Positions 43,241 to 64,000 of a stretch of 64,000 nucleotides of DNA are shown piece after piece. The translations under genes and the position numbers were made by a program. The stretch is from the NCBI GenBank assembly GCA_963804165.1, contig CAWDPO010000023.1, forward strand, positions 204,967 through 268,966, written 5' to 3'. Positions within the stretch are counted from its first letter, which is position 1, and each line of letters starts with the position of its first letter. The notes below the pieces were generated by a model, which had not been told where the DNA came from, did not search any database, and was given only the letters and a program-made list of their open reading frames with translations. The DNA comes from an uncultured delta proteobacterium. Its GTDB lineage: Bacteria; Desulfobacterota; Binatia; UBA9968.

Positions 43241-43308
43241 AGGATTGAACTGGAACGCAACAGTCGCGTCTTGTAGGATTAAGTCGTTGGAGAATACAAT
43301 TCAATCCT
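43241..43308. repeat. full palindromic site (degenerate)
   Basis: AGGATTGAACTGGAACG...GGAGAATACAATTCAATCCT. Confidence 0.82.
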
Positions 43309-43332
43309 AGCTCGCCGCGTCGCTTTGTTCGG

Positions 43333-44318
43333 TTACTTGATCACCTGATTCGCCCGCTCGAGCACGCGGGGCGGAATTGTCAGACCGATCTGCTTCGCCG
43401 TTTTCAGATTGATCACAAACTCAAACTTCGTTGCCTGCTGCACCGGCAAATCAGCCGGTTTGGCGCCTTTTAAAATCTTGTCGACGTAAACCGCCGCGCG
43501 CCGATAGAGGTCATCGTATTCCGTCCCGTAGAACATGAGGCCGCCCTCTTCGACAAACCCCTTATCAAAGTAAATAGCCGGCAACCGATATTTGTCGGCA
43601 AGCTCCACGATCCGCTTTCTTTCGGCGAAAAATCTGCGATTGGAGGTCGTCATAATCGCGCCAACCTGTTTTTGCTTTGCGGTTTGAAAGGCGCGCTCTA
43701 AATCTTTGGGGTCGGCTTGAGCCTCGATCTCGTCCAATTTGAGCTTCAGCGCCAGAGCCGCAGGCTTGATCTCTTTCAATTGAAAGTTTCCTGGTCCGGC
43801 TGCCGGAGTCCACAGAAGTCCAACTCGGCCGAGCTTGGGCACCGCGTCGTTGAGTATCTCTAGTCTTTTGGTATTCAGTTCTACTGATTGAGCAGTAAAA
43901 CCCGTCACATTCCCACCCGGCCGGGCTAGACTGGCAACCAATCCTGCGCCTATAGGGTTCGCAGCGCTCGTCATTACGATGGGAATGGTAGCGGTGGCGC
44001 TCTGGCCGCTAACGCCGCTACTGTCCCGGTAACCACAATCAGATCGATCTTAAGACGAACCAGCTCCCCCGCAAGCTCAGTTAGTCTTTCAGTCTTTTGC
44101 TCGGCAAACCGGTACTCGATGGTGAGATTCTTTCCTTCATTCCATCCAAACTTGCTCAGCTCTTGCCGGAACGCGTCCACGAGGACTGCATTGCCAGAAG
44201 CAGTGCTTGGATCCAGCAAACCTATGCGGAAGATTTTCCCTGTCGGCTGCGCCTCGACTATGGCCACAAAAGCAAGCAGGACCACTACAAACAGGATTGA
44301 GAAAATGGCTTTCCTCAT
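43333..44318 (-). CDS. ABC transporter substrate-binding protein (ABC_sub_bind type); one frameshift near 44000
   Basis: Signal peptide, ELVRLKIDLIV, GLVASLARPGGNVTG, GGLMFYG, YVDKILKGAKPADLPV. Confidence 0.88.
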
Positions 44319-45135
44319 TGCACATACCATTACCCGTCATGTGTATCACGTGGAACGGTAGTAGAGAACAGTGAAATTTACGACGGGAAGACGGCAGTTT
44401 TTCGTCGCATGGGAAGACCGAAGTGAGTCGTGGCGTAGGGAGTCAATCGAATGTCGCCGAAGGTCAAGAAAAAGACGCTTGAGGGCCTTTATAGAAGTGC
44501 GGGTCTGGATCATTGTGGATAAGACACACTTAGGGGAGCGAGTACTATGCACATCACCGCCGGACCTTGGCCACGTTTCTCTATCGCAACTTTGGTTATT
44601 GGCCTGTGGATGCTGTGGCGGAGAAAGCAGAATTAACTTTGAGCCCGCGATGGTTTTGCGTGCAATCCTAATTTTGGTCACCGAGTTGCGACTAATTCGT
44701 CGAAACAAAACTGCGCCCCTGGGTGAGCGTCTGGCGTTTTTCGGTACGCGCGCCCATCCCATATGACCGTGAAGCTATTGGCCGCATCATGGATGATCTC
44801 GCAAGGCTATCGCTTCATTGAAGACGCAGAAGTCAAAGCCGCGATTCTCGAAGTGCTGATCGACTTGGGTCGTCAATTGGGCGAGCTTGGGACACCCAAC
44901 TATCATTGACCGTGGTTTCTGCACCTGTTCAAACAAATTTGAAAGAAAGGCAAAACAATGAAAGCGGAGAAGGACGATGGGTATAAGTGCCCACGATGTG
45001 ACGACCACATTCCGGAGCAGTTCTACTGCCGCGACTGCGGCTACGTGCCGAACTGGAGGCAGATTGAAACGACAAGACCCACAGAGAAGCGGCATAACTC
45101 ATGGAGCTGAGATGTCCTATCTAAATTCGACTGTG

Positions 45136-45544
45136 ATGACTTTCGTCTCCCTGCCAACGGCCTTGAACAACCGAAAACCGCTGATTGCCATCGTTGATGA
45201 CGATGAGCCTGTCTGCCGTGCAGTGAGACGACTGGTGCGATCGGTGGCGATGGACGCGGAAACATTCAACTTCAGGACAACAGTTTCTCGATCTGCTTGA
45301 AGCGATGCCTTCGTTTCAACCCAAATGTTTGATTCTGGATGTGCAAATGCCGGAGATGAATGGTCTTGAAGTCCAAGATTGGCTCGTGAAAAACGGCAAC
45401 ACGGTTCCCGTGATTTTTATCACGGCGCACGATGAGGTCGGCGTCCGTGACAAGGCGCTAGCCGCTGGCGCAGTTGCGTTTTTGCGTAAGCCTTTCAACG
45501 ACGAGCTTTTGATCAAGACGCTTCGCGAGGCGCTGAAGGACTGA
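45136..45544 (+). CDS. single-domain response regulator; frameshift near 45275
   Basis: IAIVDDD in 44977..45300; CLILDVQMPEMNG...ITAH...LRKPF in 45305..45544; stop lies 2 nt before a palindrome half-site. Confidence 0.8.
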
Positions 45545-45546
45545 TT

Positions 45547-45570
45547 TGAAGGAGAATTCAGTTCAATCCT
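45547..45570. repeat. palindromic-site right half
   Basis: TGAAGGAGAATTCAGTTCAATCCT. Confidence 0.9.
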
Positions 45571-45603
45571 GGCGTCGCAGTTTGTTTTCCCGGCATCATC
45601 GAA

Positions 45604-46558
45604 TCACTTTATCCGACCTGGCCAATACATTCCGCGGAATCGTCAGGCCGACCTGCTTTGCGGCTAACTAAAGTCGATCCATCCCACCAGCGCGGTGCCG
45701 AAATGCTCGCCATCAACGACCCGGAACGAGCATTCAAGTGACCTGCACGTAGCGACCCTTCTCGATCTCATAACCACGCACAAGGTGATGGCGCTCTAAG
45801 ACTTCGTTACAGACTGCACAGAGATGGCGGTGTTTGAGGCGTGACCCGCATTGGGCGTGTAAAAGATTGAAGAATGGTCGCTGTGTGGAGCTCGACCGGG
45901 ATGGCACCAAGCCAAATGGCCAGGAGGTCTTCGATGGCTCGATGCGGCGCGGGGCATCGGCTACCGGGCACCAAGCGATGAAGGCTTAAAGAAACAGATT
46001 GCACTGCCCTATCTTGATGGCGCTCTGGATCGTGCGCGAAAGCTCGAATAAAACTCCATTACGACGGACGGTGCATCTTTCCATCTGCTACTCTTAAATC
46101 CATGGCTCGCCCCATTGCCCGGAGCGTTCTGCGCTTTCAGAGCAGCGATGAACCTCCGGGCATACTCCAGTGATCGAACCCGCTGGCAACAGGATCGCCG
46201 TCCTGCGCAAAGACAATGGGAATCGTGGTCGTCGCTTTCTTGGCGGCACGGGTTACCGACGGACCAGCCGTTACGATGACATCGACCTTGAGACGCACCA
46301 GCTCGGCCGCAAGCTCACGCTCGCGATCCGCTTTTCCCTCTGCGTATCGATACTCAACGTCGATGTTTTCCCCCTCCACGTACGCCAGCTCGCGCAGCCC
46401 TGCCGGAATGCCGCGACGCGAGCGACAACGGCGGCGGGTTTGGTGTCAGCTAGGAATCCTATCCGTGAGACCTTCTTCGGCTGTTGCGCACCGGCTCTGA
46501 CTGCGAAAGCAAGCAGTACCACTACAAACAGGATTGATAAGGCACCCGCTTTCTTCAT
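45604..46558 (-). pseudogene. ABC substrate-binding protein gene with its middle replaced (3' stub ~45604-45665, 5' part ~46170-46558)
   Basis: MKKAG...ELVRLKVDVIVT...DGDPVASG at the 5' end; AAKQVGLTIPRNVLARSD at the 3' end; unrelated DNA between. Confidence 0.75.
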
Positions 46559-46659
46559 TGCACACACATGTATCACGCGGGACGCTACCAGAGAGAAAGT
46601 AACATTTAGGACGGAGGGCGACAGCGATTCTTCGGGTGAGAAAACCAGATTTTAAGCGT

Positions 46660-46722
46660 GAGATTGAACTGAACGACGCTTCAATGTAGATGCTGGCGGA
46701 GATTAAGCATTGAAGGAGAATT
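46660..46722. repeat. palindromic site, left part (interrupted; remainder at 49249..49263)
   Basis: GAGATTGAACTGAACGACGCTTCAATG...CATTGAAGGAGAATT| then element then |ATTCAGTTCAATCCT. Confidence 0.9.
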
Positions 46723-46869
46723 GGACTAAACCGCTTCGCGGTAGGCCGGAGGGCCGGAGTCCCTGCCATGACGTTCTTCCTGCTTTAGTTTTGCAGTTAT
46801 CATTTTTTTGACGGTGTGTCGTGTCGCAGTGATAGCCTCAGTGAAAATTTTTCACTCAAGGAGGCTGTC

Positions 46870-47715
46870 ATGGGAGCATTACGAGACCGGATGATCGAGG
46901 AGATGAAGCTGCGGAACTTTTCGGCTGCAACACAGAAGACGTACGTCTACGCGGTGACACGGCTAGCGAAATATCATGGCAAAGCGCCGGACCAGCTCGG
47001 TAAGGAGGAGATCCGAGCCTTTCTTGTGCATCTGATAGTGGAGCGGAAGTTATCGCCCAATGGTCTGACCGGCTACTGCTCGGGGCTGCGGTTTTTCTAT
47101 AACGAGACTCTGGGATGGGACGAGAACAAGCTGTTCATTCCACCGCGCAAGCAATCGTCACCTCTGGCGGAGGTCTTCAGTCCCGAGGAAATCGTGCGTC
47201 TGATCCGCGCGGCCCGAGGTCTCAAGCAGCGTGTGCTGTTAATGACCGCCTACTCGGCTGGACTGCGAGTCAGCGAGTTAGTCAATCTCAAGGTCAACGA
47301 CATCGATCCGGCGCGCATGACGCTACGTATCAGGCAAGGTAAAGGCGGCAAAGACCGTTACGCGATTTTGTCGCAGAACCTCCTTGCGGAACTGCGTGTG
47401 TATTGGAAACGCTACCGGTCCGCGGTCTGGCTTTTCCCCAACCGAGCCAAGAACGGCCCTTTGAGTCGAAACGAAGCGTGGCACATCTTCAATTCGGTCA
47501 AGAGAAGAGCGGGCCTTAAAAAGGGCCGTGGCATACACAGCCTGCGGGCATGTTTTGCCACTCATCTGTTGGAAGCGGGTGTGGACCTACGCTCGATCCA
47601 GTTGTTGATGGGGCACACCTCGCTTATGTCTACCCAGCGCTACTTGAGGCTATCGCCACAGAGCGTCAACCGTGCCCTTAGTCCGCTCGACCGATTACCG
47701 TTAACGACGGTCTAA
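46870..47715 (+). CDS. tyrosine recombinase (N-terminal SAM-like domain + catalytic domain)
   Basis: GGAGG RBS; GLRVSE, GKGGKDR, HSLR, LMGH and TQRY catalytic residues. Confidence 0.95.
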   Translation: MGALRDRMIEEMKLRNFSAATQKTYVYAVTRLAKYHGKAPDQLGKEEIRAFLVHLIVERKLSPNGLTGYCSGLRFFYNETLGWDENKLFIPPRKQSSPLAEVFSPEEIVRLIRAARGLKQRVLLMTAYSAGLRVSELVNLKVNDIDPARMTLRIRQGKGGKDRYAILSQNLLAELRVYWKRYRSAVWLFPNRAKNGPLSRNEAWHIFNSVKRRAGLKKGRGIHSLRACFATHLLEAGVDLRSIQLLMGHTSLMSTQRYLRLSPQSVNRALSPLDRLPLTTV

Positions 47716-47718
47716 GCC

Positions 47719-48909
47719 GTGGGCGCCGGCTCTGGACAGCCGGCAGCAAGAGGCGGCGTTGAACTGGCCGATATTTTTCGCGCCTATGGCGAGTCGTATC
47801 GCCGCCACCATCCGTTGCCGGTCTCCCATCTTAAGGTTATGCAGGCCGTGGAGCGCTGTCGCACTGCAGCTCTCGGAGGCCACCTCCAGCAGTGTGATGC
47901 CTGTGGCTTCGAGCGTCCCGCCTACAACTCCTGCCGCAATCGACACTGCCCTAAATGCCAATCGTTGGCGAAGGTCAAATGGCTCGATAAACAAAAGTCA
48001 GAACTGTTGCCGACCGGATATTTTCATCTGGTCTTTACCTTGCCGCACGAATTGAACCCGTTGATCCTGATCAACAAGAAACCTCTCATCAATATCCTGT
48101 TTCAATCGGTCTGGCAGACCTTGGCGCAGTTTGCCCGGAGTCATCTCGGTGGGAGCTTGGGGATCACCGCAGTTCTGCACACCTGGGACCAGACCCTGTT
48201 GGATCATTTTCATCTGCACTGTCTGGTTCCCGCCGGCGCGTTGTCCTTTGATCGAAACCGCTGGGTCCCGGCGCGTCAGGACTTTCTCTTTCCAGTCAAA
48301 GCCCTGAGCCGGGTCTTCCGCGCTAAGTTTCTCGACTCGCTCAAAAAGAGCTTCGATCAAAGCAAGTTGCTCTTCGTCGGACAGATCGCGCCCTTGGCCG
48401 ACGCCGACAGCTTTGGTGTACTTCTCAATGGATTGCGGAAAAAACCGTGGGTGGTCTATGCCAAAAAACCATTTGGCTCTCCCGTCTATGTCCTTGATTA
48501 CTTAGCTCGCTACACTCATCGTGTAGCACTCTCCAACGATCGCATCTGCTCGCTCCACAACCGGGAGGTCACCTTCACGTACCGCGATCGGAAAAATGAA
48601 GATCGACGTAAATTGATGACGCTGGGGGCCGAGGAGTTCATTCGACGCTTTTTGCTCCACGTCATCCCCAAGGGTTTCATGCGGGTGCGCCACTACGGCT
48701 TTTTAGCCAACCACCGCAAAGATTGTCTGTCGAAGTGTCGTCAACTCGTGGGACTTTCACCTGCACTCATCCCACCTCCTCAACGCTCTCCTGACGAGTT
48801 GATGCTGGCACTGAGGGGCATCGATATCCATCGCTGCCCCCGCTGCCAGACCGGAACGCTGATGTGGGTCTTCGACTTGGCGGTCTCCCGACCGTGGGAT
48901 TCGTCGTGA
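47719..48909 (+). CDS. IS91-family Y2 (HUH) transposase with Zn-binding N-terminus
   Basis: CDAC...SCRNRHCPKC, HLVFTLP, HTW...HFHLH, YLARY, RRFLLHV.P.GF.RVRHYG. Confidence 0.95.
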   Translation: MGAGSGQPAARGGVELADIFRAYGESYRRHHPLPVSHLKVMQAVERCRTAALGGHLQQCDACGFERPAYNSCRNRHCPKCQSLAKVKWLDKQKSELLPTGYFHLVFTLPHELNPLILINKKPLINILFQSVWQTLAQFARSHLGGSLGITAVLHTWDQTLLDHFHLHCLVPAGALSFDRNRWVPARQDFLFPVKALSRVFRAKFLDSLKKSFDQSKLLFVGQIAPLADADSFGVLLNGLRKKPWVVYAKKPFGSPVYVLDYLARYTHRVALSNDRICSLHNREVTFTYRDRKNEDRRKLMTLGAEEFIRRFLLHVIPKGFMRVRHYGFLANHRKDCLSKCRQLVGLSPALIPPPQRSPDELMLALRGIDIHRCPRCQTGTLMWVFDLAVSRPWDSS

Positions 48910-49267
48910 AGATCGCTCGATCAAATCAAAACCAGAGTCTTGCTGTTGCTCAGTGCCGGAGCCAATGCAGCGCTGTATTCTGTTCCGCCATTTTCCCTGC
49001 TACTAGCCCGCGCTACAGTGCGCGCAGCTCCCTGCTCGCCGCTACAAACCACATCCCATACCGCCCCATCATCTTGTTGCTCACCACTCAGCAGCGTCCG
49101 TTTACCTCATCCTTTCCTGTTCAATCCCCATAGGCAACGACTCTTGCCTCTCCCAGCGCTTTAGTCCAATGGGTTTTAACCTGAATGCGCCCGTTCTTCC
49201 CAGCTATCACCGATCGTTCTGCGCTCGCATTCAGGTTAAAACCTGTACATTCAGTTCAATCCTGGCG

Positions 49268-50242
49268 TTACTTAATCACCTTGTCAGCCCGTGCCAGCAC
49301 ATTTGGCGGAATCGTGAGACCGATCTGCTTCGCCGTCTTCAGATTGATCACCAGCTCGAACTTCGTCGGGGCTTCAACGGGCAAGTCCGCAGGCTTGGTC
49401 CCTTTCAGAATCTTATCCACATAGGTTGCGGCGCGGCGGTACAAGGTAGTGTAGTCCGACCCGTAGGACATAAGGCCGCCCGCCTCCACAAACTCTTTCT
49501 CCCAGTACATCGCTGGCAGTCGATGCTTAGCGACGAGTTCAACAATGCGCTTCCTGTTCGCGCTCGGGACAGGACCTTGGATCACGAGCAGCGCGTCGGC
49601 GCGCCTCTGGCTCAAGGCGCCGAACGACGGTTCGAGATCCTCCCGTCGTCTTATCTCAAGGGATAACGGCGTTAACCCCAGCGATGGTGCCACCGCCTCG
49701 GTCTCCTTGAATGCGACGACGGACGCTGTACCTTCTGGATTCCAGAGGATCGCCACCCGAGATGCCTTCGGCAAAACCTCCTTGATCAGTTCAAGCCCTT
49801 TAGTGCTCAACTCTGGAGAGAGGGTCGTGTTTCCAGTCACGTTGCCTCCGGGGCGTGCAAGGCTCGCGACAAGACCGATTCTCACAGGGTCGCCGCCCGC
49901 TGCGATCACGATCGGGATTGTCTTGGTTGCTTTGGCCGCCGCTCTCGCGGCCGTTAGGCCTCCCGTAACGATGACATCCATTTTGAGCCGTACTAGTTCA
50001 GTGGCTAGCTCAGGGTATTTCTCTGTTCGTCCTTCTGGATCTCGCTGTTCGATTATGATGCTCTTCCCCTCGATGTACCCGAGTTCGCGCAGACCCTGTT
50101 GAAAGGCATCGACGCGCTGCTGACCACCGCTCACGAGCATGCCTACTCGCGGAACTTTCGCCGGCTGCTGCGCCTCGACTATAACTGCAACAGCAAGCAG
50201 TATCACGGCAACCAACGCCGACGCCCAGCCCGCTTTTTTCAT
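49268..50242 (-). CDS. ABC transporter substrate-binding protein (ABC_sub_bind type), intact
   Basis: 324 aa, signal peptide, GDPV..GLVASLARPGGNVTG, GGLMSYG, YVDKILKG.KPADLPVE. Confidence 0.93.
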   Translation of the reverse strand: MKKAGWASALVAVILLAVAVIVEAQQPAKVPRVGMLVSGGQQRVDAFQQGLRELGYIEGKSIIIEQRDPEGRTEKYPELATELVRLKMDVIVTGGLTAARAAAKATKTIPIVIAAGGDPVRIGLVASLARPGGNVTGNTTLSPELSTKGLELIKEVLPKASRVAILWNPEGTASVVAFKETEAVAPSLGLTPLSLEIRRREDLEPSFGALSQRRADALLVIQGPVPSANRKRIVELVAKHRLPAMYWEKEFVEAGGLMSYGSDYTTLYRRAATYVDKILKGTKPADLPVEAPTKFELVINLKTAKQIGLTIPPNVLARADKVIK

Positions 50243-50340
50243 GGCCGCTACATTACCACGCGGAGCCTAGCGATGAAAAGTGTGATTTGCCGCAATAGAA
50301 GAACCAGAGTCTTCGAGGGGAAGAAGACCAATTTCGACGT

Positions 50341-50407
50341 AGGATTGAACTGAACGACGCTTCAGTCAAATCTCATAGGATTTAGTCGTAGGAGAAATCA
50401 GTTCAAT
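50341..50407. repeat. full palindromic site
   Basis: AGGATTGAACTGAACGACGCTTCA...CGTAGGAGAAATCAGTTCAAT. Confidence 0.88.
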
Positions 50408-50608
50408 TACAGCCTTAGCGTTGGCGTTGAGGGAGTGCTGAGGATCCGAAGCGATAAGGGAATCCAGCGGCAGGACTGCTGCGTTCCCCTCCACCGCTTT
50501 GTTAGTTAAGTTAGATAGTGTCATTTCACGCAATCGAGCAGTTGAAAGCGAGCCGAGAGCCGCTTGCAACGAACCGAGCCGAGGCGCTAAACGTCGAATC
50601 AACTGAAA

Positions 50609-51256
50609 TTGATGGAACCGATGAAGTTAATTAAACAGTTACCCGTTTGGCTGTTCGTCTCGCTGCTTCTGCTGGGAGCCGTCCCTACTTCAGCAATGGA
50701 GATGAGCGTCAGCGGCTCTCAGCTCATCCTCAGCGGTTTCATTAACGAGTTGGATTACGACAAATTCCTTTCGCACCTAACCCCAGCCATACGAACTGTC
50801 GTCTTCACCAACAGCCCGGGCGGGGTACATTTGATCGGGTTAGCCCTTGCTCACGAGATTCGACGCCGAGGGCTGTCGACCGTTGCCTTGGGGTACTGTA
50901 ACTCAGCCTGCGCCAATGCGTTCCTTGGTGGAGCGGATCGCCGGTTGGCCAATGACCGTAGCTACGTTGCGTTTCACGGCAATTACTCGTACCGGATCGG
51001 CAGACCTTTAACCGGACACTTCGGCGAGCTATCTGCCTTCTACAGCGAGATGACCAATGGACGGTTAAACGACCAGATGATTCAACTGTTCCTGAGCAAA
51101 GGGGAGCGCGGATTCGTCGGTTACTACCAGCGGGTGACGCGAAATTGTGAAGGCACAGAGCCCAAACGGCCCTCGGGCTGTCCGACGCTTCCAATCACGG
51201 CCTTGGAGCTCGGTATTCTTACGGCTCTCGACGACGTTGAGGTTAGCGAACAGTGA
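50609..51256 (+). CDS. exported ClpP/crotonase-like protein
   Basis: Signal peptide, LSGFI, NSPGG, CNSACANAFLGG..R, VAFH. Confidence 0.7.
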   Translation: MMEPMKLIKQLPVWLFVSLLLLGAVPTSAMEMSVSGSQLILSGFINELDYDKFLSHLTPAIRTVVFTNSPGGVHLIGLALAHEIRRRGLSTVALGYCNSACANAFLGGADRRLANDRSYVAFHGNYSYRIGRPLTGHFGELSAFYSEMTNGRLNDQMIQLFLSKGERGFVGYYQRVTRNCEGTEPKRPSGCPTLPITALELGILTALDDVEVSEQ

Positions 51257-51361
51257 ACATTACAGAATCCCTAAAGACGCAAATGGCCTGAAAGCGTTTT
51301 TACTCGCATAACGCGTTCGTGGATAGTCCTCAAACCTACAGTCAAATTCTGTAATCGACGT

Positions 51362-51385
51362 GAGATTGAACTTAACGACGCTTCA
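51362..51385. repeat. palindromic-site left half
   Basis: GAGATTGAACTTAACGACGCTTCA. Confidence 0.85.
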
Positions 51386-51454
51386 ACGCGATGCTAGCCT
51401 AATCCAAAACCAACAGCGGGTTTTCTTAGTTCCCCGCCGAGTTAGATCCAATGG

Positions 51455-51688
51455 TTAGCGGCTTATGCGCCTCGCCTCACTGTTTTCGCTGGTAGGCGTG
51501 CGAGCAAGTCTCCACAACCAAAGACTCAGACCGCCGAAAACGATAACAGCCAAAACGCTTGGCCACAATGGCATCGGATAACCACCTACAAGCACTTCTG
51601 GCCGTATTACAAGCCGCGCCAGCTGCGCAATGGCCAGCGAAGCGAACACCACGCTCGACACTAGCAATCCTGTAGTTTGGGAGTTCAT
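51455..51688 (-). CDS. small two-TM membrane protein
   Basis: GGAGG RBS; VFASLAIAQLARL...PLWPSVLAV. Confidence 0.65.
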   Translation of the reverse strand: MNSQTTGLLVSSVVFASLAIAQLARLVIRPEVLVGGYPMPLWPSVLAVIVFGGLSLWLWRLARTPTSENSEARRISR

Positions 51689-51850
51689 GCTGTCATGCCC
51701 TCCTAATCAATTAGGTGCCTTCAACGATAAGCGTGTCACCGCTGAAACAGGAGCGCAACATTGCAATTCTGGCGTCACGTTGCTGCGAGCAGCTGCTATC
51801 GGTGCGCATTTCCAGCACGGGTTGCGCGGAAGAACCAGATTTTTAGCCTA

Positions 51851-51883
51851 AGATTGACCTGAAGGAGAATTCAGTTCAACTCC
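51851..51883. repeat. collapsed palindromic site (left arm fused to right half)
   Basis: AGATTGACCTGAAGGAGAATTCAGTTCAACTCC. Confidence 0.75.
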
Positions 51884-51885
51884 AT

Positions 51886-51966: not shown

Positions 51967-51972
51967 CCCGTC

Positions 51973-54760: not shown

Positions 54761-55606
54761 ATGGGAGCATTACGAGACCGGATGATCGAGGAGATGAAGC
54801 TGCGGAACTTTTCGGCTGCAACACAGAAGACGTACGTCTACGCGGTGACACGGCTAGCGAAATATCATGGCAAAGCGCCGGACCAGCTCGGTAAGGAGGA
54901 GATCCGAGCCTTTCTTGTGCATCTGATAGTGGAGCGGAAGTTATCGCCCAATGGTCTGACCGGCTACTGCTCGGGGCTGCGGTTTTTCTATAACGAGACT
55001 CTGGGATGGGACGAGAACAAGCTGTTCATTCCACCGCGCAAGCAATCGTCACCTCTGGCGGAGGTCTTCAGTCCCGAGGAAATCGTGCGTCTGATCCGCG
55101 CGGCCCGAGGTCTCAAGCAGCGTGTGCTGTTAATGACCGCCTACTCGGCTGGACTGCGAGTCAGCGAGTTAGTCAATCTCAAGGTCAACGACATCGATCC
55201 GGCGCGCATGACGCTACGTATCAGGCAAGGTAAAGGCGGCAAAGACCGTTACGCGATTTTGTCGCAGAACCTCCTTGCGGAACTGCGTGTGTATTGGAAA
55301 CGCTACCGGTCCGCGGTCTGGCTTTTCCCCAACCGAGCCAAGAACGGCCCTTTGAGTCGAAACGAAGCGTGGCACATCTTCAATTCGGTCAAGAGAAGAG
55401 CGGGCCTTAAAAAGGGCCGTGGCATACACAGCCTGCGGGCATGTTTTGCCACTCATCTGTTGGAAGCGGGTGTGGACCTACGCTCGATCCAGTTGTTGAT
55501 GGGGCACACCTCGCTTATGTCTACCCAGCGCTACTTGAGGCTATCGCCACAGAGCGTCAACCGTGCCCTTAGTCCGCTCGACCGATTACCGTTAACGACG
55601 GTCTAA
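54761..55606 (+). CDS. tyrosine recombinase
   Basis: Identical to 46870..47715. Confidence 0.95.
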   Translation: MGALRDRMIEEMKLRNFSAATQKTYVYAVTRLAKYHGKAPDQLGKEEIRAFLVHLIVERKLSPNGLTGYCSGLRFFYNETLGWDENKLFIPPRKQSSPLAEVFSPEEIVRLIRAARGLKQRVLLMTAYSAGLRVSELVNLKVNDIDPARMTLRIRQGKGGKDRYAILSQNLLAELRVYWKRYRSAVWLFPNRAKNGPLSRNEAWHIFNSVKRRAGLKKGRGIHSLRACFATHLLEAGVDLRSIQLLMGHTSLMSTQRYLRLSPQSVNRALSPLDRLPLTTV

Positions 55607-55609
55607 GCC

Positions 55610-56800
55610 GTGGGCGCCGGCTCTGGACAGCCGGCAGCAAGAGGCGGCGTTGAACTGGCCGATATTTTTCGCGCCTATGGCGAGTCGTATCGCCGCCACC
55701 ATCCGTTGCCGGTCTCCCATCTTAAGGTTATGCAGGCCGTGGAGCGCTGTCGCACTGCAGCTCTCGGAGGCCACCTCCAGCAGTGTGATGCCTGTGGCTT
55801 CGAGCGTCCCGCCTACAACTCCTGCCGCAATCGACACTGCCCTAAATGCCAATCGTTGGCGAAGGTCAAATGGCTCGATAAACAAAAGTCAGAACTGTTG
55901 CCGACCGGATATTTTCATCTGGTCTTTACCTTGCCGCACGAATTGAACCCGTTGATCCTGATCAACAAGAAACCTCTCATCAATATCCTGTTTCAATCGG
56001 TCTGGCAGACCTTGGCGCAGTTTGCCCGGAGTCATCTCGGTGGGAGCTTGGGGATCACCGCAGTTCTGCACACCTGGGACCAGACCCTGTTGGATCATTT
56101 TCATCTGCACTGTCTGGTTCCCGCCGGCGCGTTGTCCTTTGATCGAAACCGCTGGGTCCCGGCGCGTCAGGACTTTCTCTTTCCAGTCAAAGCCCTGAGC
56201 CGGGTCTTCCGCGCTAAGTTTCTCGACTCGCTCAAAAAGAGCTTCGATCAAAGCAAGTTGCTCTTCGTCGGACAGATCGCGCCCTTGGCCGACGCCGACA
56301 GCTTTGGTGTACTTCTCAATGGATTGCGGAAAAAACCGTGGGTGGTCTATGCCAAAAAACCATTTGGCTCTCCCGTCTATGTCCTTGATTACTTAGCTCG
56401 CTACACTCATCGTGTAGCACTCTCCAACGATCGCATCTGCTCGCTCCACAACCGGGAGGTCACCTTCACGTACCGCGATCGGAAAAATGAAGATCGACGT
56501 AAATTGATGACGCTGGGGGCCGAGGAGTTCATTCGACGCTTTTTGCTCCACGTCATCCCCAAGGGTTTCATGCGGGTGCGCCACTACGGCTTTTTAGCCA
56601 ACCACCGCAAAGATTGTCTGTCGAAGTGTCGTCAACTCGTGGGACTTTCACCTGCACTCATCCCACCTCCTCAACGCTCTCCTGACGAGTTGATGCTGGC
56701 ACTGAGGGGCATCGATATCCATCGCTGCCCCCGCTGCCAGACCGGAACGCTGATGTGGGTCTTCGACTTGGCGGTCTCCCGACCGTGGGATTCGTCGTGA
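55610..56800 (+). CDS. IS91-family Y2 (HUH) transposase
   Basis: Identical to 47719..48909. Confidence 0.95.
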   Translation: MGAGSGQPAARGGVELADIFRAYGESYRRHHPLPVSHLKVMQAVERCRTAALGGHLQQCDACGFERPAYNSCRNRHCPKCQSLAKVKWLDKQKSELLPTGYFHLVFTLPHELNPLILINKKPLINILFQSVWQTLAQFARSHLGGSLGITAVLHTWDQTLLDHFHLHCLVPAGALSFDRNRWVPARQDFLFPVKALSRVFRAKFLDSLKKSFDQSKLLFVGQIAPLADADSFGVLLNGLRKKPWVVYAKKPFGSPVYVLDYLARYTHRVALSNDRICSLHNREVTFTYRDRKNEDRRKLMTLGAEEFIRRFLLHVIPKGFMRVRHYGFLANHRKDCLSKCRQLVGLSPALIPPPQRSPDELMLALRGIDIHRCPRCQTGTLMWVFDLAVSRPWDSS

Positions 56801-57146
56801 AGATCGCTCGATCAAATCAAAACCAGAGTCTTGCTGTTGCTCAGTGCCGGAGCCAATGCAGCGCTGTATTCTGTTCCGCCATTTTCCCTGCTACTAGCCC
56901 GCGCTACAGTGCGCGCAGCTCCCTGCTCGCCGCTACAAACCACATCCCATACCGCCCCATCATCTTGTTGCTCACCACTCAGCAGCGTCCGTTTACCTCA
57001 TCCTTTCCTGTTCAATCCCCATAGGCAACGACTCTTGCCTCTCCCAGCGCTTTAGTCCAATGGGTTTTAACCTGAATGCGCCCGTTCTTCCCAGCTATCA
57101 CCGATCGTTCTGCGCTCGCATTCAGGTTAAAACCTATACATTCAGT

Positions 57147-57407
57147 TCAATCCTGCGCTTTCTGTTGGCCTGAAACGTTCACTTGATTACCTTGTCCGCT
57201 CTCAGCCGCGACGCCGGAAAAGAGCAACAGTGGGGTGAGCAATCCCAGGTGCTTGATCACCACAAGAATAATCACGCTCGCCAGCACTCCGACCGATAGA
57301 CTTGTATTCGACGAAATGTAGTACAGGACGATTCCGTGACCGATCAGAATGGCCGCTGCCACCAGGAGTATCCAAGGCCGCGTAAGCAGACGCCTGTGTC
57401 CCATCAT
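57147..57407 (-). CDS. small two-TM membrane protein
   Basis: ATG overlaps the methyltransferase stop; two hydrophobic helices; stop codon falls inside the palindrome arm. Confidence 0.55.
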   Translation of the reverse strand: MMGHRRLLTRPWILLVAAAILIGHGIVLYYISSNTSLSVGVLASVIILVVIKHLGLLTPLLLFSGVAAESGQGNQVNVSGQQKAQD

Positions 57408-58079
57408 GGTATCGGCCTGTTCGTTGCGGTGTTCGTAATTGCGTGCGGCGATGGGGCCATCGCGAGAACAAAATGCAAGTCGCGGAGTCCCACCGCACCG
57501 CTCTCGGCAATGTTTAAACCCGCTTCGCTTAGCGTGCCAATGATGTCGCGCAGCTTGACGTAACCATGGCGGTGAAAGTGCGCGAGGAAGCCTTTTTTTC
57601 CTCGCCGGCGCCTCCGAAATCAACGACAAGGACGCGTCCACGCGGCTTCAGCACCCTGCGCATCTCGCAGGCGCATTCCAGACGTGCTTTGCGCGGCAAA
57701 TGATGAAGCATCACCGAGCTTAGCACAGCGTCGAATTGAGCGTTGGGAAACGGCAGCGCCTGAGCAAGCCCATTCTTGAAGAAAACCTCGACGCCGGCTT
57801 TTCTCGCCTTGTTGCTTGCTCTCGCAAGCATCTCCGGCGACGCATCGATCCCATACACCGTGCCGGTCGGCCAGACATGCCGTTTGGCCGCGATCGCAAG
57901 GGTTCCGGTCCCGCAGCCCACGTCCAGGACCGACTCGCCAGGCTCCAGGCGCGCCAGTCGGAGAACTTTCTCACAAACGCCCCCTCCCGGCCGAGCATGA
58001 CCAGCCTGACCATGAGATCATAGGCACCCGCCGCGTGCAGCACCTGGCCGATTGGACCGGACTTGTGATTCTGTTCCAT
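57404..58079 (-). CDS. class I SAM methyltransferase (UbiE-like), frameshifted
   Basis: DVGCGTG, GIDASPEML, ALPFP..FDAV.SS.MLHH, EMRRVLKP across three frames. Confidence 0.78.
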
Positions 58080-58247
58080 CGTTATCCTCACTTGGCATTC
58101 CTGAATAAAAGTATCAAAGTGGAAATCGAATTCAGTTTCGAGTGTAGCTGAAAAGCCAACCGAGTGAAGGGACAGCAAACGTAGACGTGTCCGATAGCGG
58201 ACAAAAACACTCACGTTGTTCATCTCCTGCGGAGGCTCAGAGGAAAA

Positions 58248-58840
58248 GTGACGCTAACAGCAAACCCAGCTAAGGATCGGCGGATTCAAAAGACGCAACG
58301 CCTCTTGCGTGAGGCGCTCGCTTCTTTGATTCGCGAAAAGCCCTATAACTCCATCGTTGTGAAACAGATTCTCGATCACGCCAACGTCGGCAGATCGACC
58401 TTCTATACGCACTTTCGCGACAAAGACGATCTGCTCGTCAGTTGCATACATGATATGCTTCACTCCGTTGACGCGATGGGCTGGCGTCCGCGGGAAAAGG
58501 TTACGAAACAATGATTGGGTTCAGCCTTCCCATCTTCGAGCATATACATCGGCACATGCATACCGGCGAGGCAAAAATGGGCAGCAAGAGTCGAGAGGTC
58601 ATTCATGAACGCCTTCGCAAGGTGCTCGCTGAGCTGATTGCCGATGACATTCGAAAAGATTTTCAAGGCCGGCGAAAAACGGCGGGCCAGATTTCACTGG
58701 ACCTTCTTGCTCAATACGTGACTTCGACATTCATTCTCGTGCTCAATTGGTGGGTGGAGTGTGGTCGGCTTCCTCCGAAGGAAGCCAATGACTTGTTTCG
58801 TGCGCTGATCTTGCCGACGCTGGCTGCCAACTTGGAGTGA
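58248..58840 (+). CDS. TetR family regulator, frameshift near 58490
   Basis: DRRIQKT...ANVGRSTFYTHFRDK HTH; C-terminal half in 58511..58840; divergent from the methyltransferase. Confidence 0.82.
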
Positions 58841-58896
58841 ATGAAATAGAGCGCTGGACATTCAATGGGACAAAACGTGCGGAGGAGAACACCAAC

Positions 58897-59140
58897 ATGG
58901 CATACTTTACACGGCGCTCATTGTGCCGCGGGTTTGCTGCAATGGCCGTTCTCCCCCTGGCGGCGCGGTGCGGAGCGATGGCGCAGACTTATCCGGAGCG
59001 CAAGATCCAAACGAGTATCCTCGAAGTTCCCGGCGCTCGATCTATGAGACTCACGGCAGGGCCCGGTCATGCTCATGGTTCCGGGGGCCAGCGGCACAGC
59101 CGAAAGCTCCAGCGGTGTAGTAAGCCGCCAGATGTTCCGT
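58897..59140 (+). pseudogene. 5' fragment of a Tat-exported (alpha/beta hydrolase-like) gene
   Basis: GGAG RBS, TRRSL twin-Arg signal, LEVPGAR, then frame break and truncation. Confidence 0.4.
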
Positions 59141-59328
59141 GACGTGGTGCGCAGATTCTATGTCCGAGATCCGTTCGGAAAGCTGATAAACATTTTACAA
59201 CATGAGTGAGATGTTGCGCGGCTAACAGCCGGCGCGGCGTGCTTGGATTATTCCACAACTGATTGCTCCCAGGCTTTGAGGAATAAAACGCTATACGTTA
59301 GGCCGCCCCTCACGCGGATGACAAAAGA

Positions 59329-60787
59329 ATGTCTGTACACTCAGTGATGAACCGGTCGCCATATCACTTGGGTTTCTGCACCCTGGATACGGAAACTAGC
59401 TTGGACGACCTGCCCGTCCGAGGCACGGTTCCGCCCTGGCTCACCGGCACCTTGGTGCGGACCGCTCCAGCGAAGTTCGAGGTGGGTGACCGGAGCTACA
59501 ATCATTGGTTCGACGGGCTGGCCATGCTGCACAAGTTCGCCTTCACGGGCGGTCGCGTCGCGTATGCGAACCGCTATCTCCGTAGCCGGTCGTATCTTGA
59601 GGCGACGACAACGGGTAAGATCAGTCGGGGCGAGTTCGCCACCGACCCATGCCGGACCCTGTTCCACCGCGTGGCCGCCTGGTTCTGGCCGAAGTTCACT
59701 GATAACTGCAACGTCAGCGTCAATAAATTGGCCAGCGAGGTCGTCGCCTACACCGAAACGCGGATGCCGATTCGCTTCGATCCGGACACGTTGAACACGC
59801 TCGGTGGGTACGACTATGACGAGCGGATCAAGGGGCCGGTCTCCACTGCGACCCGCACCTCGACCACGCGCGAGGTCGGCACTACACCTACATGTTGGAA
59901 TTTGGTCGGAGGAGCAAGTATCACCTCTTTGGCATCGATCAGGGGACGGGACGAGAGGTGGTCGTCGCCACGCTCTCTGCCGACCGACCCGCGTACATGC
60001 ACTCGTTTGGGATGAGTGAACGGTATCTTGTCCTGGTGGAATTCCCTCTCGTGGTCAACCCGCTTCGGCTCAAGTTCAGTGGCAAGCCGTTCATCCGGAA
60101 TTACCAATGGGAACCGGATCGCGGGGCCCGGTTCCACGTCGTCGATAAGGAGAGCGGGCAAGTGGTGCGGACAGCGCGGAGCGGGGCGGTCTTTGCCTTC
60201 CATCACGTCAACGCCTTCGAAGAGGGCGACGAGATTGTAGTGGACATCGTAGCCTTCCCGGATTCAGGCGTCATCGATCAGCTTTACCTCGAGCATCTGC
60301 GGTCGGCCGAGCCGGTGATGACGACAGGGAAGCTTACCCGCTTCCGTATCGGCTCGAGTGGCGACGCCCCTGACGAGAGGCGTTGGAGGCCCCGATCTAG
60401 TTTCCCCGCATTAACTACCGCTGCCGCGCCGGACGGCGGTACAGCTACGTGTACGGAGCTGGGAATGAGGTGCAGGGAAACTTCATCGACAACCTCGTGA
60501 AGTTGGACCTAGAGCATAATACGACCTCGTCTTGGTACCAGGAGGGCTGTTACCCCGGAGAGCCTGTATTCGTGGCGAGACCGGATGCGGCGGACGAGGA
60601 CGACGGGTCATACTCTCGGTTGTGCTGGATGCTAAGAAGGCCGCGTCCTTTCTGCTGATCCTGGACGCCTCGAGCTTTCGGGAGTTGGCCCGCGCGGGAG
60701 GTGTCACACCACATCCCGTTTGGGTTCCACGGGAATTACTTCGCGGAGACGAGCGGGCCGGAGTCGTTTCGAGACCTCCACCGATAA
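59329..60787 (+). CDS. carotenoid oxygenase (RPE65/LSD) family protein, several frameshifts
   Basis: V.G.VP.WL.G, HWFDGLAM, YMHSF, FHHVNAFE and GEPVFV motifs in successive frames. Confidence 0.82.
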
Positions 60788-61057
60788 CGCATTGCCCCAA
60801 AGACCTACACCCAATAACCCCACACCTCCCCCCCTGAACTCACGCCCCGAAATGCGGGGCGCCCAGCGGGGCTAGGAAGGCGGCCCAACAATCATGGTTG
60901 CTCGCGTCCCACCAGCACCAGAATTCTGGTGTGCGGTTTTGCCTGTATCGCGCGTCTTTTCTCCCCAGGAGGATCTGTCATACTTCTGTAGGGGATGTCG
61001 AATGCGCTCACCCGGTTCGACAATAGGGGAGTGAGTTGCAACGCAAAGGAGAAGACC

Positions 61058-61816
61058 ATGAGTGTGACTTTCCCGAACGAAACGCTGAACTATAGGAGCG
61101 CGCGTACTGCCCTGTTAGAGCGCGAGGTGGCGCTCCGGCGGCAAATGGAGGCCGTCGCAACTGAACTGCGGGCGCTGCCGCCGGGCGGCGAAGTGCCGGA
61201 AGACTATTCATTCGACTGCATCGGCGCGGACGGCGCGCCTTCGACGGTGCGCTTGTCCGAGCTGTTCCGCGGCGGCGACACGCTGACGCTCTACCACTAC
61301 ATGTTCCCCCGCCATGCCCAGGACACGCGGCCGGGGCCGACGGCCGGAGCCATGGCGCAGGTACCACTCGCCGAGGGGCCGTGCCCTTCGTGCACCGCGC
61401 TCATCGACATGTGGGAGGGAACGATGCCCCATTTCGAGGGGCTCGGCGGCAACCTCGCCGTCGTCGCAAAGGCCCCGATCGAGCGGGTCGTGGCGTTCGC
61501 GCGCGACAAGGGATGGAAGCACATCAGGTTGTTGTCAGCTGCGAACAACACCTTCAAGCGGGATTATCATGGCGAGGACGCGGAGGGTCAGCAGGTCCCG
61601 ATCATGACCGTATTCAAGCGATGGCCTGACGGGGCGATCCGGCTGCATTGGGCGTCCGAGCTCATATTCGAGCCGACCGATCCGGGTCAGGACATGCGGC
61701 ACTTGGGCACTGTCGAGCCGCTTTGGACGCTGTTCGACCTGACGCCCGGGGGGCGGCCGAACGCGGACGAGCAGATCCAGTATGATTGCTGCCATTCAAA
61801 CGGCCGGTCAGCTTGA
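61058..61816 (+). CDS. DUF899 thioredoxin-like protein
   Basis: R..LL..E..L, LPPGG, LSELF, YHYMF, CPSC. Confidence 0.85.
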   Translation: MSVTFPNETLNYRSARTALLEREVALRRQMEAVATELRALPPGGEVPEDYSFDCIGADGAPSTVRLSELFRGGDTLTLYHYMFPRHAQDTRPGPTAGAMAQVPLAEGPCPSCTALIDMWEGTMPHFEGLGGNLAVVAKAPIERVVAFARDKGWKHIRLLSAANNTFKRDYHGEDAEGQQVPIMTVFKRWPDGAIRLHWASELIFEPTDPGQDMRHLGTVEPLWTLFDLTPGGRPNADEQIQYDCCHSNGRSA

Positions 61817-61991
61817 GGGCTAAATTGGCTTTCTAGTATCTTAGCGATTAGGGATGCTCGGTGGATTTGTTGCTCGGGTTTTTATTTCTGCTTACCTCCT
61901 GGAGTGACCGCCAATCCGAAAGGCGTTCATGAATGCAAGGTTCTTCCAGGAGATGGCGGTGCGATTCCGACCGTGGCGCTCTACATTTGAG

Positions 61992-62810
61992 TTATGTGGA
62001 AACTGTTCTGAGCTTCATCTGCTCCAACACCGCTCGACCGAGCAGACCGCAGGGATTGCCGAGTGTCTCGAACATTTCGAAGTGGTTATACCCTTCGCCG
62101 AGGAGGAATTTTATCGGCTTGCCTGCTTCTTTCACCGCCGCCGCGAACTCTCGGTTCTGGCGCTGGAACTCAGGCGTCTCCAGTGTCCCGTGCGCGACAA
62201 TCACTGGGGCAACCAACTTCTCAAGATGACCTTTGGGCGAGAGCTTCTCGATGACCTCTGGAGTAAATTTCACGTAGCTGGAGCGCTTCGAGAGACTGAC
62301 GGGATACAAATCATACAAACCGCTACAACAGAGTCCTCCCTTCAATACATCGGCAGGCAACCCAAAATCCTTCTCCCAGTCGGTCGTGAGCGCAACGGCA
62401 GCGAGATACCCTCCCGACGAGGTGCCTGATATATAGATCCGATTAGAATCGCCGCCAAATGTCGCGGCATTTTTGTAGATCCAGGCTATCGATCTCCGCA
62501 CCTGATCTGCCATAACCATGAGATTGCCGCCAACCTCAGGCGCATTATTGAAGTCCACGGAGATGAAATGAGCCCCCGCATCGACGAAAGTCTCGGACAT
62601 GTAAGCCGCGCCCTTGGCATTTCCACTCCGCCAAGCACCGCCATGAATAAAGATATTGATCGGAGCGTTGGATTGCTTTGTTACGTAGATGTCGACTTTC
62701 TCGATCTCAGCCGAGCCATAGGCAACACGACGTGGCTGGCCGAGACGAGCTAATGCGGCAGCGCTCTTGTGTGCATTGCGTTTACTAATTTGTGGTGCAT
62801 TTGGGAAGCA
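61992..62810 (-). pseudogene. arylformamidase-like alpha/beta hydrolase, probably 5'-truncated
   Basis: FIHGGAW, GTSSGG, SGLYDL, NHFE; reading frame runs into the repeat at 62801 with no RBS/ATG. Confidence 0.72.
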
Positions 62811-62870
62811 CCTCTCGGACAAAAGGCGGACACCATGCGATTTGATTGAAGGAGAATTCAGTTCAATCCT
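62801..62870. repeat. palindromic-site right half with extended leader (near copy of 35660..35730)
   Basis: TTGGGAAGCAC...CGGACAAAAGGCGGACA...TTTGATTGAAGGAGAATTCAGTTCAATCCT. Confidence 0.88.
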
Positions 62871-62885
62871 GCGATTGCCGCGTGG

Positions 62886-63838
62886 TTATTTGATCACCCT
62901 GTCCGCTCTCGCCAGCACGTTCGGCGGGATCGTTAAGCCAATCTCCTTAGCCGCTTTCAAATTGATAACGAACTCGAATTTTTTCGGCTGTTTCACCGGA
63001 AGATTGCCAGGCTTTCCACCCTTCAGAATTTTGTCCACGTACGTAGCCGCGCGGCGGTCCAAATCGGCGCGGTTTGCCGCATAGGTCATCAGCCCGCCCT
63101 CTTCCACAAACTCGCTCCGGGGTAAGCCGCCGGGAGCCGGTTCTTTACGGCATATTGAGGCAACAGTGCTGGCTGAGGGTTAAACACAGGACCTGCAAGT
63201 ACGAAAACCGCTTCAGCCCGCGCCTTGCTCGCCTCTCGGAACGCAGTCTCAAAATCCTTAACACTTAGTATGTCCAAGTATTGAAGCTGCACCCCGAGTG
63301 TTGCTGCAGCGCGTTCGGTCTCTCTTAACTGTATACCGTTCCCCGCGTTGGCCGATTGCCCAAGCACCGCCATACGGGAGAGCTTGGGTAGAATTTCTCT
63401 GAGCAACTCAAGCCGCTTTCCAGCCAAGTCCGCAGTCATTGACGATAAGCCGGTGATATTTCCCGCAGGTCGGGCCAGAGTGGTCACGGGTCCGTTTCCA
63501 ACCGGATCGGGATCCTGCAAAAACACTATGGGAATCGTGGTCGTCGCTTCTTTGGCGGCGCGTGTTGCTGTCGCGCCACCGGTGACGATCACGTCCACCT
63601 TGAGACGCACGAGCTCGGCCACGCGGGTAACGAAAGTTTTCTCCGCGCTTGGATATATAATCACTAAGTTTTTTCCTTCTACGTAACCGAGATCGCGCAG
63701 GCCCTGGCCGAATGCGCCCGACTTGGTGGAGCTAAGGTAGCCTATCCGGTAGACTTTTGGCTGCTGCGCCTCGGCGATCATCGCAACAGCCAGCAGCATC
63801 ACCGCAAACAGGATTGATGTCGCCGCAGCTTTCTTCAT
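62886..63838 (-). CDS. ABC transporter substrate-binding protein (ABC_sub_bind type); frameshift near 63115
   Basis: Signal peptide, ELVRLKVDVIVT, DPDPV, LARPAGNITG, GGLMTY, YVDKILKG. Confidence 0.88.
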
Positions 63839-63949
63839 TGCGCTCCTCATCCTTGCGGCTTTTATCACGGATACGGAAGCTGAGAAAGGTGTTGTTTACG
63901 ACAGAAAGAAAACCAGAGTCATCGAGGGGAAAAAGGCTAATTTCGACGT

Positions 63950-64000
63950 AGGATTGAACTGAACGACGCTTCAATGCGATGTTGGGGAAGATTGGATTGA
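63950..64000. repeat. palindromic site, cut by the window edge
   Basis: AGGATTGAACTGAACGACGCTTCAATG...GATTGA; the last bases match the start of the right half. Confidence 0.88.

Follow-up and report, generated by a model that had tools for sequence, protein, structure and literature searches.

Cassettes of classical integrons mostly lack promoters, and their attC sites are recognized as imperfect palindromes of the order R''-L''...L'-R' with a length of roughly 57-141 nt. Insertion sequence (IS) elements that target palindromes of the repetitive extragenic palindrome (REP) type are known, and the Bug/TctC family of Bordetella is an example of periplasmic binding proteins that have expanded as orphans. 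The folded attC site consists of an R box, an unpaired central spacer, an L box and a variable end, and two or more attC sites without the integron integrase IntI are termed a CALIN (an attC cluster that is devoid of integron-integrases), as far as the part of Cury et al. (2016; PMC4889954) drawn on here describes them. In this study, we analysed a 64,000-nt stretch of DNA, called the window (contig C23, 204967-268966), whose right edge coincides with the contig end. It belongs to a metagenome-assembled genome (MAG; G000) of Binatia type, which is 7.5 Mb in size and 81% complete, with a contamination estimate of 5%. The window contains an array of palindromic sites that bound genes for substrate-binding proteins (SBPs) as well as other genes, and that are in part split by IS91-type elements carrying an IntI-like recombinase. 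We regard it as probable that these sites undergo site-specific, attC-type recombination and that the array is CALIN-like, lacking an integrase and being of a non-canonical kind.

On the gene strand, which is the minus strand of the window, the full site of ~72 nt reads AGGATTGAACTGAA-TTCTCC-(A/T)TCAA...loop...TTGAA-GCGTCG-TTCAGTTCAATCCT; the first half of the palindrome is referred to as the 5' arm and the second half as the 3' arm. It consists of two stems, R-type outside and L-type inside, which are separated on either side by an unpaired spacer. Pairing reaches 91% in the outer stem (14 pairs) and 72% in the inner one (6 pairs), compared to 20-47% in slid controls. The spacers, TTCTC(C) and (G)CGTCG, are 5-6 nt long, invariant or nearly so, and not complementary, leaving them unpaired. 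Three sites have a short form, in which the inner hairpin has been lost between TTCA repeats. Set against the attC criterion, the site shows the order R''-L''...L'-R', the appropriate length and the unpaired spacers, but its core boxes differ from those of attC. With respect to the CALIN definition, the array agrees in spacing, strand and absence of IntI, and it would count as a CALIN if its sites are taken as attC, which depends on stem plan, spacers, core boxes, folded strand and crossover.

The motif AGGATTGAACTGAA, allowing up to two mismatches, occurs 13 times in the window (both strands), all within 35717-63963, whereas 0.42 occurrences are expected from shuffles. Over the whole of G000, half-sites defined as 19-mers with up to three mismatches number 122, and those with up to four mismatches number 188, compared to 19 for reversed control motifs. 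A covariance model, R1, was built from 26 sites of G000 and six sites of the relative G018, so that matches to those sites are by construction; it finds 34 matches in G000 at E <1e-11, all inside ~15 accessory clusters and often at contig ends. The polarity of the sites is uniform within every cluster (15/15 in C5, 18/18 in C12, 12/12 in C21, and 12/12 in C23). There are 38 site-to-site intervals of up to 1.9 kb in G000, with a median of 1,100 nt, six of which are duplicates of others, and the longest open reading frame (ORF) is co-oriented with the site in 28 of these short units. SBPs form the single most frequent cargo (11 of 38). An earlier note on this DNA, made from the sequence alone, had taken orphan SBPs for the main cargo of the sites; they are the commonest one, but account for about a third of the cargo rather than the majority. 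The rest comprises SAM methyltransferases, cupin, TENA/THI-4, lipocalin-like, MBL-fold, SnoaL-like and GNAT proteins, a TIR-methyltransferase fusion, ArdC-like and AurF-like proteins, a trypsin-like peptidase, and several proteins without a family.

A regular arrangement is found where SBP genes and sites meet. SBP loci were collected by tblastn with the intact protein of the window, which gave 219 matching pieces chained into 153 loci in G000; 30 of these have a half-site nearby, 29 of them in the expected place and orientation. In all 29 oriented cases, the arm 3' of the gene starts 6-55 nt past the projected stop (108 nt in one case) and the arm 5' of the gene ends 100-115 nt before the projected start (189 nt in one case). 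The arm-to-gene geometry pointed out in the earlier note is therefore real, and it is more regular across the genome than had been stated.

Within the window, the three units of 1.08-1.09 kb that the earlier note had delimited are borne out by the motif positions: the left boundaries 45570, 49263, and 62870 are ends of the motif, and the right boundaries 46660, 50341, and 63950 are starts. So are its five SBP loci: all match PF04392, lie on the minus strand and have one palindrome arm 3' of the gene. Four of the five are broken; only 49268-50242 is intact. The intact gene scores 182.7 bits against PF04392 (cut-off 25.9), fragments of the other four loci match too, and the closest solved structures to its product are 3LKV, 3LFT, and 6HNI. 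The lack of transport partners also holds, in that PF02653 permeases have zero matches on contig C23 and no ABC component was found among 29 ORFs scanned in 31-64 kb, ABC ATPases not having been searched genome-wide. What the earlier note overlooked are the non-SBP genes bounded by sites, the two sites split by elements, and the half and short forms of the site. The features of the array and its left border are as follows.

35322-35329, no strand: left island junction, an 8-nt copy (TGGTGGAG) of the tRNA-Ala(CGC) 3' end; the intact tRNA is at the start of contig C45
35711-35729, minus: half-site, 5' arm only, 19-mer with 1 mismatch, 3' of the truncated SBP
35748-36430, minus: SBP fragment, N-terminally truncated (query residues 74-324), two frame changes
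42010-42028, minus: half-site, 5' arm only, at the end of the AurF-like cassette; identity to contig C21 stops exactly there
42204-43133, minus: non-SBP cassette gene (309 aa) whose AurF-like match is weak and under the Pfam cut-off; C21:6241-7718 is the same module, 98.4% identical
43241-43308, minus: full palindromic site, covariance model 72.7 bits
43336-44318, minus: SBP gene with one frame change; conserved leader 44319-44422, decayed 3' arm ~44425-44450
45551-45569, minus: half-site, 5' arm only, 0 mismatches
45599-46558, minus: degraded SBP gene, detectable at query residues 1-134 and 304-324 only; leader 46553-46659
46656-46722, minus: split site (3' arm, loop, start of 5' arm) with an IS91-type element inserted; arm remainder 49249-49263
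46723-49248, plus: IS91-type element copy 1, with Xer/IntI-like tyrosine recombinase 46816-47715, IS91-family Y2 transposase 47719-48909 and terminal attC-like hairpin 49161-49248
49268-50242, minus: intact SBP gene, 324 aa; leader 50239-50340
50341-50410, minus: full palindromic site, covariance model 81 bits
50343-51863, minus: module shared at 99.4% with contigs C21 and C22, which have another upstream context; contains a 215-aa ORF (plus strand, no known family), a 77-aa ORF and an internal 3' arm 51363-51381
51845-51888, minus: short site form; the 5' arm abuts TTCAG, the inner hairpin being deleted between TTCA repeats
51973-52731, minus: trypsin-like peptidase cassette gene
52883-54301, plus: DDE transposase (DUF772, DDE_Tnp_1) adjoining the trypsin-like cassette, a second IS kind in the array
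54551-54613, minus: second split site (3' arm, loop, start of 5' arm); arm remainder 57140-57154
54614-57139, plus: second copy of the IS91-type element (99.96% identity with the first), inserted at the corresponding position of its site
57147-62822, no strand: multi-gene stretch without sites, with two ORFs of no known family, a split RPE65-type oxygenase, DUF899 and an alpha/beta hydrolase
62851-62869, minus: half-site, 5' arm only, 0 mismatches
62889-63838, minus: SBP gene with one frame change; leader 63839-63949
63951-64000, minus: 3' arm and loop of a site, cut by the window end, which is the contig end

Evidence for movement comes from modules that recur in different surroundings. Modules that are 96-99% identical are found in two or three contexts each (C12/C20/C12, C21/C23, and C5/C8), and their identity stops at the sites. 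Two examples outside the window are given below.

C12:70827-71830, C12:58397-59222 and C20:5958-6957: a 1.0-kb module in three contexts
C5:21532-22722: a recurring module with a copy on C8

At all inspected junctions, identity starts or ends within or just past GCGTCG^TTCAG, the exact base being blurred by conserved flanks, and a variant TTCAGG travels with the downstream module in both of its contexts. The suggestion that the units are shuffled as cassettes is thus sustained by modules that recur with boundaries at the site, while its other half, amplification of the SBP family by the sites, is not. Contigs C21 and C22 repeat 42010-43489 and 50343-51863 of the window at 98-99% with other neighbours; these copies could stem from paralogous arrays or from a second strain that ended up in the MAG. 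Public sequencing runs were also searched. The best-matching runs contain up to 28% of the sampled words of 42-52 kb, and four soil runs gave short contigs only, covering the AurF-like module, the IS91-type element and conserved SBP parts. Most apparent joints in the soil runs have sides shorter than 30 nt or come from complete sites of other cassettes that the mapper divided, and no inference on excision or habitat is drawn from them.

If the sites recombine in this manner, a tyrosine recombinase would exchange strands at N^TT of GCGTCG^TTCAGT, and a cassette would run from TTCAGTTCAATCC through a conserved leader of ~100 nt and a single gene into the following site, ending at the G of that site. 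We infer that the exchange would be site-specific and would take place on folded DNA. The candidate enzyme could be a classical IntI encoded outside the recovered 81% of the MAG, or the IntI-like recombinase of the IS91-type elements. The SBP cassettes probably derive from the very large SBP family of the host itself, and gene conversion between cassette copies and that family continues.

The IS91-type elements provide a second view of the same position. Both copies in the window are 2,526 bp long, and their transposase matches PF04986 and PF14319 and reaches 430.6 bits against NF033538 (cut-off 125), which places it in the IS91 family of Y2 HUH enzymes with a zinc-binding N-terminal domain. 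Both copies split their sites at GGAGAA^TTCAG, which is the opposite-strand reading of the 5' arm. In elements related to them (G025, G014, and contigs C18 and C30 of G000), the split falls at GCGTCG^TTCAG, and members of a third sub-family are located outside sites, at T(A/G)G^TT. When the two ends of the element are joined as in a circle, they give R''=GTCCAAC, followed by an inner hairpin and R'=GTTGGAC; both sides of the pair are altered in the copies of the window, to GTCCAAT and ATTGGAC. In total, at least six insertions at (G/A)^TT of resident sites were found. Integron crossover takes place between the first and second base of GTTRRRY, according to the part of PMC8876359 drawn on here. 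The element junctions fit integron-type exchange because this crossover is G^TT.

The search for an integrase was extended to relatives, whose tallies of IntI, sites, recombinase and SBPs include the unpublished genomes G005 and/or G035, whose sequences themselves are not used here. IntI exceeds the cut-off of TIGR02249 in 11 of 61 genomes (60 relatives and G000). Sites at E <=1e-5 are present in 22 of the 60 relatives, 18 of which are among the 30 genomes of the same genus, and arrays in G018 and G025 contain SBP cassettes with this same geometry. Public loci with the exact 3' arm number 32, in records that are mostly Binatia or 'uncultured delta proteobacterium' MAGs from soil. The regions beside the IntI genes of G018, G014, and G015 contain zero copies of the site. 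Beside IntI of G014 and G015, another kind of repeat was seen, with three to four copies of GTTCAA at a 9-nt period and the inverse TTGAAC (L030:283-336, 773-830, and 1482-1600; L031:1426-1464, 1905-1963, 2227-2283, and 9041-9154). These blocks flank small genes next to IntI, one of them LexA-like by eye; they have GTTCAA in common with the studied site, R1 does not match them, and they may be attI/attC of this genus's classical integrons. As a further side observation, the exact 21-nt 3' arm lies on contigs of 3.6-5.4 kb (L065, L076, and L077) binned as Verrucomicrobiia, Pyrinomonadaceae, and Actibacterium, which could reflect mis-binning or cross-phylum cassette transfer. In the literature, no work was found that joins Binatia with integrons or attC cassettes with substrate-binding proteins.

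The array is called CALIN-like because no integron integrase was found in G000 or near such sites in relatives, and the same absence heads a group of observations that weigh against attC-type recombination here. No integron integrase exceeds the TIGR02249 cut-off in the 81% complete G000, where the best match has 105 bits (cut-off 265). Among the matches listed, IntI and sites share a contig in none of the seven relatives having both. R1 run at E <=5 with filters off finds no site in 91 kb around the IntI genes of nine relatives, and no IntI lies within 10 kb of the 32 public loci carrying the exact 3' arm. Moreover, IntI is missing from G029 (99% complete, 20 contigs) and from G004, both of which carry sites. 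With regard to the sites themselves, the R boxes are off consensus (GTTCAGT in 6/7 agreement with GTTRRRY, with C for R, and ACTGAAT in 5/7 with RYYYAAC), and the conserved stem reaches 7 nt past them. Column identity of the sites averages 76%, with at least 90% in the arms, far above that of the genes they bound, and such likeness would equally be given by recent spread of a repeat or by concerted evolution. In attC sites, extra-helical bases mark the recombined (bottom) strand; here, wobble pairs show no strand bias (41 G-T vs 34 A-C) and single-sequence folds vary; there is no sign of which strand folds, because the wobble counts are unbiased. Many cassettes have a conserved promoter-like leader. 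Finally, homologous recombination between 72-nt repeats could also set module boundaries at the sites, and the target rule of IS91, which prefers GTTC or CTTG beside one end, could give the element junctions without a tyrosine recombinase.

Several of these points are shared by an alternative that we consider unlikely but deserving of weight, namely that palindrome and leader form one ~175-nt repeat, similar to REP or bacterial interspersed mosaic elements (BIME), to REP doublets forming hairpins (REPIN) or to miniature inverted-repeat transposable elements (MITE), which fills intergenic gaps and perhaps supplies a promoter, while homologous recombination shuffles the units and no dedicated recombinase is involved. 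It agrees with the absence of an integrase linked to arrays in any genome examined and with the far higher conservation of sites than of cargo, and the short and half forms of the site would be products of slippage and decay. The leader, a conserved stretch of ~100 nt 3' of the 3' arm, also speaks for it, since it goes with the arm before unrelated genes: of 25 copies, 18 precede site-linked SBPs and seven precede other cassettes. A Y1 (IS200-like) transposase gene inside the C12 array points the same way, but no site arm comes closer than ~1.3 kb to this Y1_Tnp gene from either direction. A repeat of this kind is further opposed by the confinement of its copies to ~15 accessory clusters of a 7.5-Mb genome and by their single polarity in each cluster. 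In addition, the distances to start and stop are fixed in 29/29 oriented SBPs although the site-linked genes are mutually only 40-60% identical, none of 123 tandem-array SBP genes has gained the repeat, and the informative module boundaries lie at the 3' arm rather than being spread over the repeat. The leader precedes 0 of 123 site-free SBPs. As to the nature of leader and site, Rfam searched over 42-64 kb at E <=1 gave one chance-level viral match only and nothing for either, RNAalifold found no consensus structure in 23 leaders, and a promoter and terminator scan of 49-51 kb gave counts not above shuffles, with no terminator at the sites.

It is also possible, though we doubt it, that the units are made and moved by the IntI-like tyrosine recombinase borne on the IS91-type elements rather than by a classical integrase, the integrase gene itself being a cassette. 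The recombinase has eight or nine copies in G000, two of them intact, identical and inside the window array, and its catalytic motifs look intact. It matches TIGR02249 at positions 4-181 and 246-315 only, and its match to IntI4 (PDB 2A3V) is broken into two parts, leaving out residues 179-255, the stretch with the IntI-specific insertion. Recombinases of this kind, borne on IS91 elements and lacking the IntI insertion, are the closest relatives of IntI in the part of a preprint (10.1101/542381) drawn on here. The element itself has canonical R''/R' boxes and sits at (G/A)^TT in the insertions described above. Furthermore, the recombinase (E <=1e-50) is present in eight of the 60 relatives, seven of which have sites. 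Against this, 15 of the 22 site-bearing relatives lack it at the same threshold, including G018 with 22 sites and G017 with 10 sites. The association may mean only that the element targets the sites, the target preference of the Y2 transposase could make the same junctions, and action in trans on other cassettes is a supposition.

A wider version of this idea, which we rate as improbable, is a platform-less, integron-like gene capture, in which the recombinase rides with the IS91 transposase as a cassette, inserts itself, and moves SBP and other cassettes in trans by (G/A)^TT exchange at folded 72-nt sites. If true, new cassettes would be made from the host's own tandem gene family, and the system might be similar to the precursor state of classical integrons.

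That the palindrome is merely a terminator or untranslated region co-duplicated with SBP genes, the reading that the earlier note had set against its own, is very improbable: the fixed distance to SBP stop and start and the conserved leader before SBPs agree with it, but the sites are not terminators because no T run follows, inserted elements split them at one fixed position, and many unrelated, non-SBP genes are bounded by the same site, which contradicts an SBP-specific terminator, while most SBP genes lack the site and those that have it do not form one clade.

Returning to attC-type recombination as the favoured explanation, its relation to the SBP family could be addressed with the genome-wide data. 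A PF04392 profile search of G000 gave 156 matches, and PF02653 permeases gave 11 matches in ~5 systems; the family is largely orphan, because ~150 loci face ~5 permease systems. The earlier note had proposed the sites as the mechanism of this expansion and had asked for a genome-wide count of site-flanked members. That count gives 123 of 153 loci (80%) without a site, an outcome that the earlier note itself had named as refuting its view. Site-free tandem arrays hold 32 loci in C6, 25 in C38, 20 in C37, and 13 in C16, in all four of which R1 finds zero sites. The sites are not the mechanism of expansion, because 80% of the family is site-free and in tandem arrays; the family expanded mainly by ordinary tandem duplication outside the sites. 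Candidate counts in two relatives, rough and from a first look, are 77 SBPs with no site in G019 and 100 with one site in G021.

A quick maximum-likelihood tree of 77 intact SBP proteins shows the 15 site-linked ones scattered, with 11 label changes, at least eight of which are forced by well-supported branches, and so site linkage does not define one clade. The site-linked gene at C5:20364 and the tandem-array gene at C37:133713 are 96% identical in DNA over the coding region only, with ~100% identity in mid-gene and lower values at both ends, which is the pattern of gene conversion, here between site-linked and tandem copies. Any SBP tree is therefore limited on cassette history. Intact ORFs of 290-380 aa are found in 77 of 152 loci overall, in 15 of 30 site-linked and 62 of 123 site-free ones. 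Frames are thus broken in about half of the 153 loci, site-linked and site-free alike, which suggests either errors of sequencing in a long-read MAG or pseudogenisation on a massive scale. A few intervals from one site to the next hold two or three SBP genes in a row, with no further site separating them (L063:3792-5896 of G018 C14; G000 C5:17153-20177 and C14:160632-163743), and these may be a bridge between cassette arrays and site-free arrays.

From ~35.3 kb onwards, the window covers the left portion of an accessory island that is at least 29 kb long and was inserted at the tRNA-Ala 3' end. The array is placed in such an insertion because of the empty arrangement in G023, the 8-nt copy of the tRNA end, and the terminal inverted repeats. 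In G023, the Na/Ca-exchanger gene (counterpart of window 34008-35057) is followed within ~200 nt by tRNA-Ala(CGC) and then by the genes that begin contig C45 of G000, and similarity to the closest relative, G029, stops at ~35280. The island ends carry an imperfect 14-nt inverted repeat (ACAGTGTAAAGAAC / GTTCTTTACACTGT) a few bases inside the 8-nt duplication, at 35330-35345 of the window and C45:215-237. No integrase or transposase for the whole island was identified.

Three further observations concern individual parts of the arrays. A 32-nt stretch (TTGGGAAGCAC...GGACAAAAGGCGGACA) takes the place of the inner half and 3' arm beside SBP cassettes at 35660-35700 and 62801-62840 of the window; it has two occurrences in the genome, the second being 62801-62832. 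The RPE65-type carotenoid oxygenase gene at 59329-60500 consists of two overlapping ORFs, owing to a frameshift or a sequencing error. On contig C5 (L033:13199-14872), a site-bounded gene for a 557-aa fusion of TIR and SAM methyltransferase adjoins a GNAT/FeeM-like gene, and this fusion may be defence-related cargo.

The birth of cassettes and the origin of integrons are open questions, and here, in a lineage of uncultured soil bacteria of Binatia type, the commonest cargo is a paralog of the host's most expanded family. With its ongoing gene conversion between cassette and tandem copies, this lineage lends itself to a search for cassette genesis. The presence of an IS91 transposase and an IntI-relative recombinase at the site's crossover point makes the role of the recombinase testable. 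For the biology of SBPs, the orphan repertoire comes mainly from tandem duplication, and only about a fifth is packaged for exchange.

In comparison with known systems, a complete integron differs from this locus by an intI gene, coding for a tyrosine recombinase with the IntI-specific insertion, beside attI and the array; such a gene was found neither in G000 nor beside the sites of relatives. The studied repeat is similar to REP, BIME and REPIN in being a short palindromic extragenic repeat that follows genes and is targeted by IS elements, but it is clustered, has one polarity, bounds mobile modules, and flanks no gene of the REP-associated tyrosine transposase (RAYT) type. The ~150 SBP loci against ~5 permease systems recall Bug/TctC of Bordetella, whereas the family here is PF04392 and about a fifth of its copies are in cassettes. 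The elements share with the IS91 elements with integron-like recombinases, as far as the cited part of 10.1101/542381 describes them, a tyrosine recombinase followed by a Y2 transposase and the lack of the IntI insertion. They differ in that their ends form an attC-like hairpin with canonical R''/R' and that copies lie at the crossover point of sites; in the literature as far as it was accessible to us, no description was found of IS91-type elements at attC-like crossover points with hairpin ends. Compared to a CALIN or sedentary chromosomal integron, the studied R boxes deviate from RYYYAAC/GTTRRRY, the stem is 7 nt longer, a leader of ~100 nt follows many sites, and none of the sites lies beside IntI in the genus. 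On the other hand, measured by what the cited parts of the sources give, the locus resembles such arrays in its co-oriented palindromes less than 4 kb apart on one strand, ~1-kb and mostly single-gene units, near-alike sites within the lineage, diverse small-enzyme cargo, IS elements without an integrase nearby, and module boundaries compatible with a G^TT crossover.

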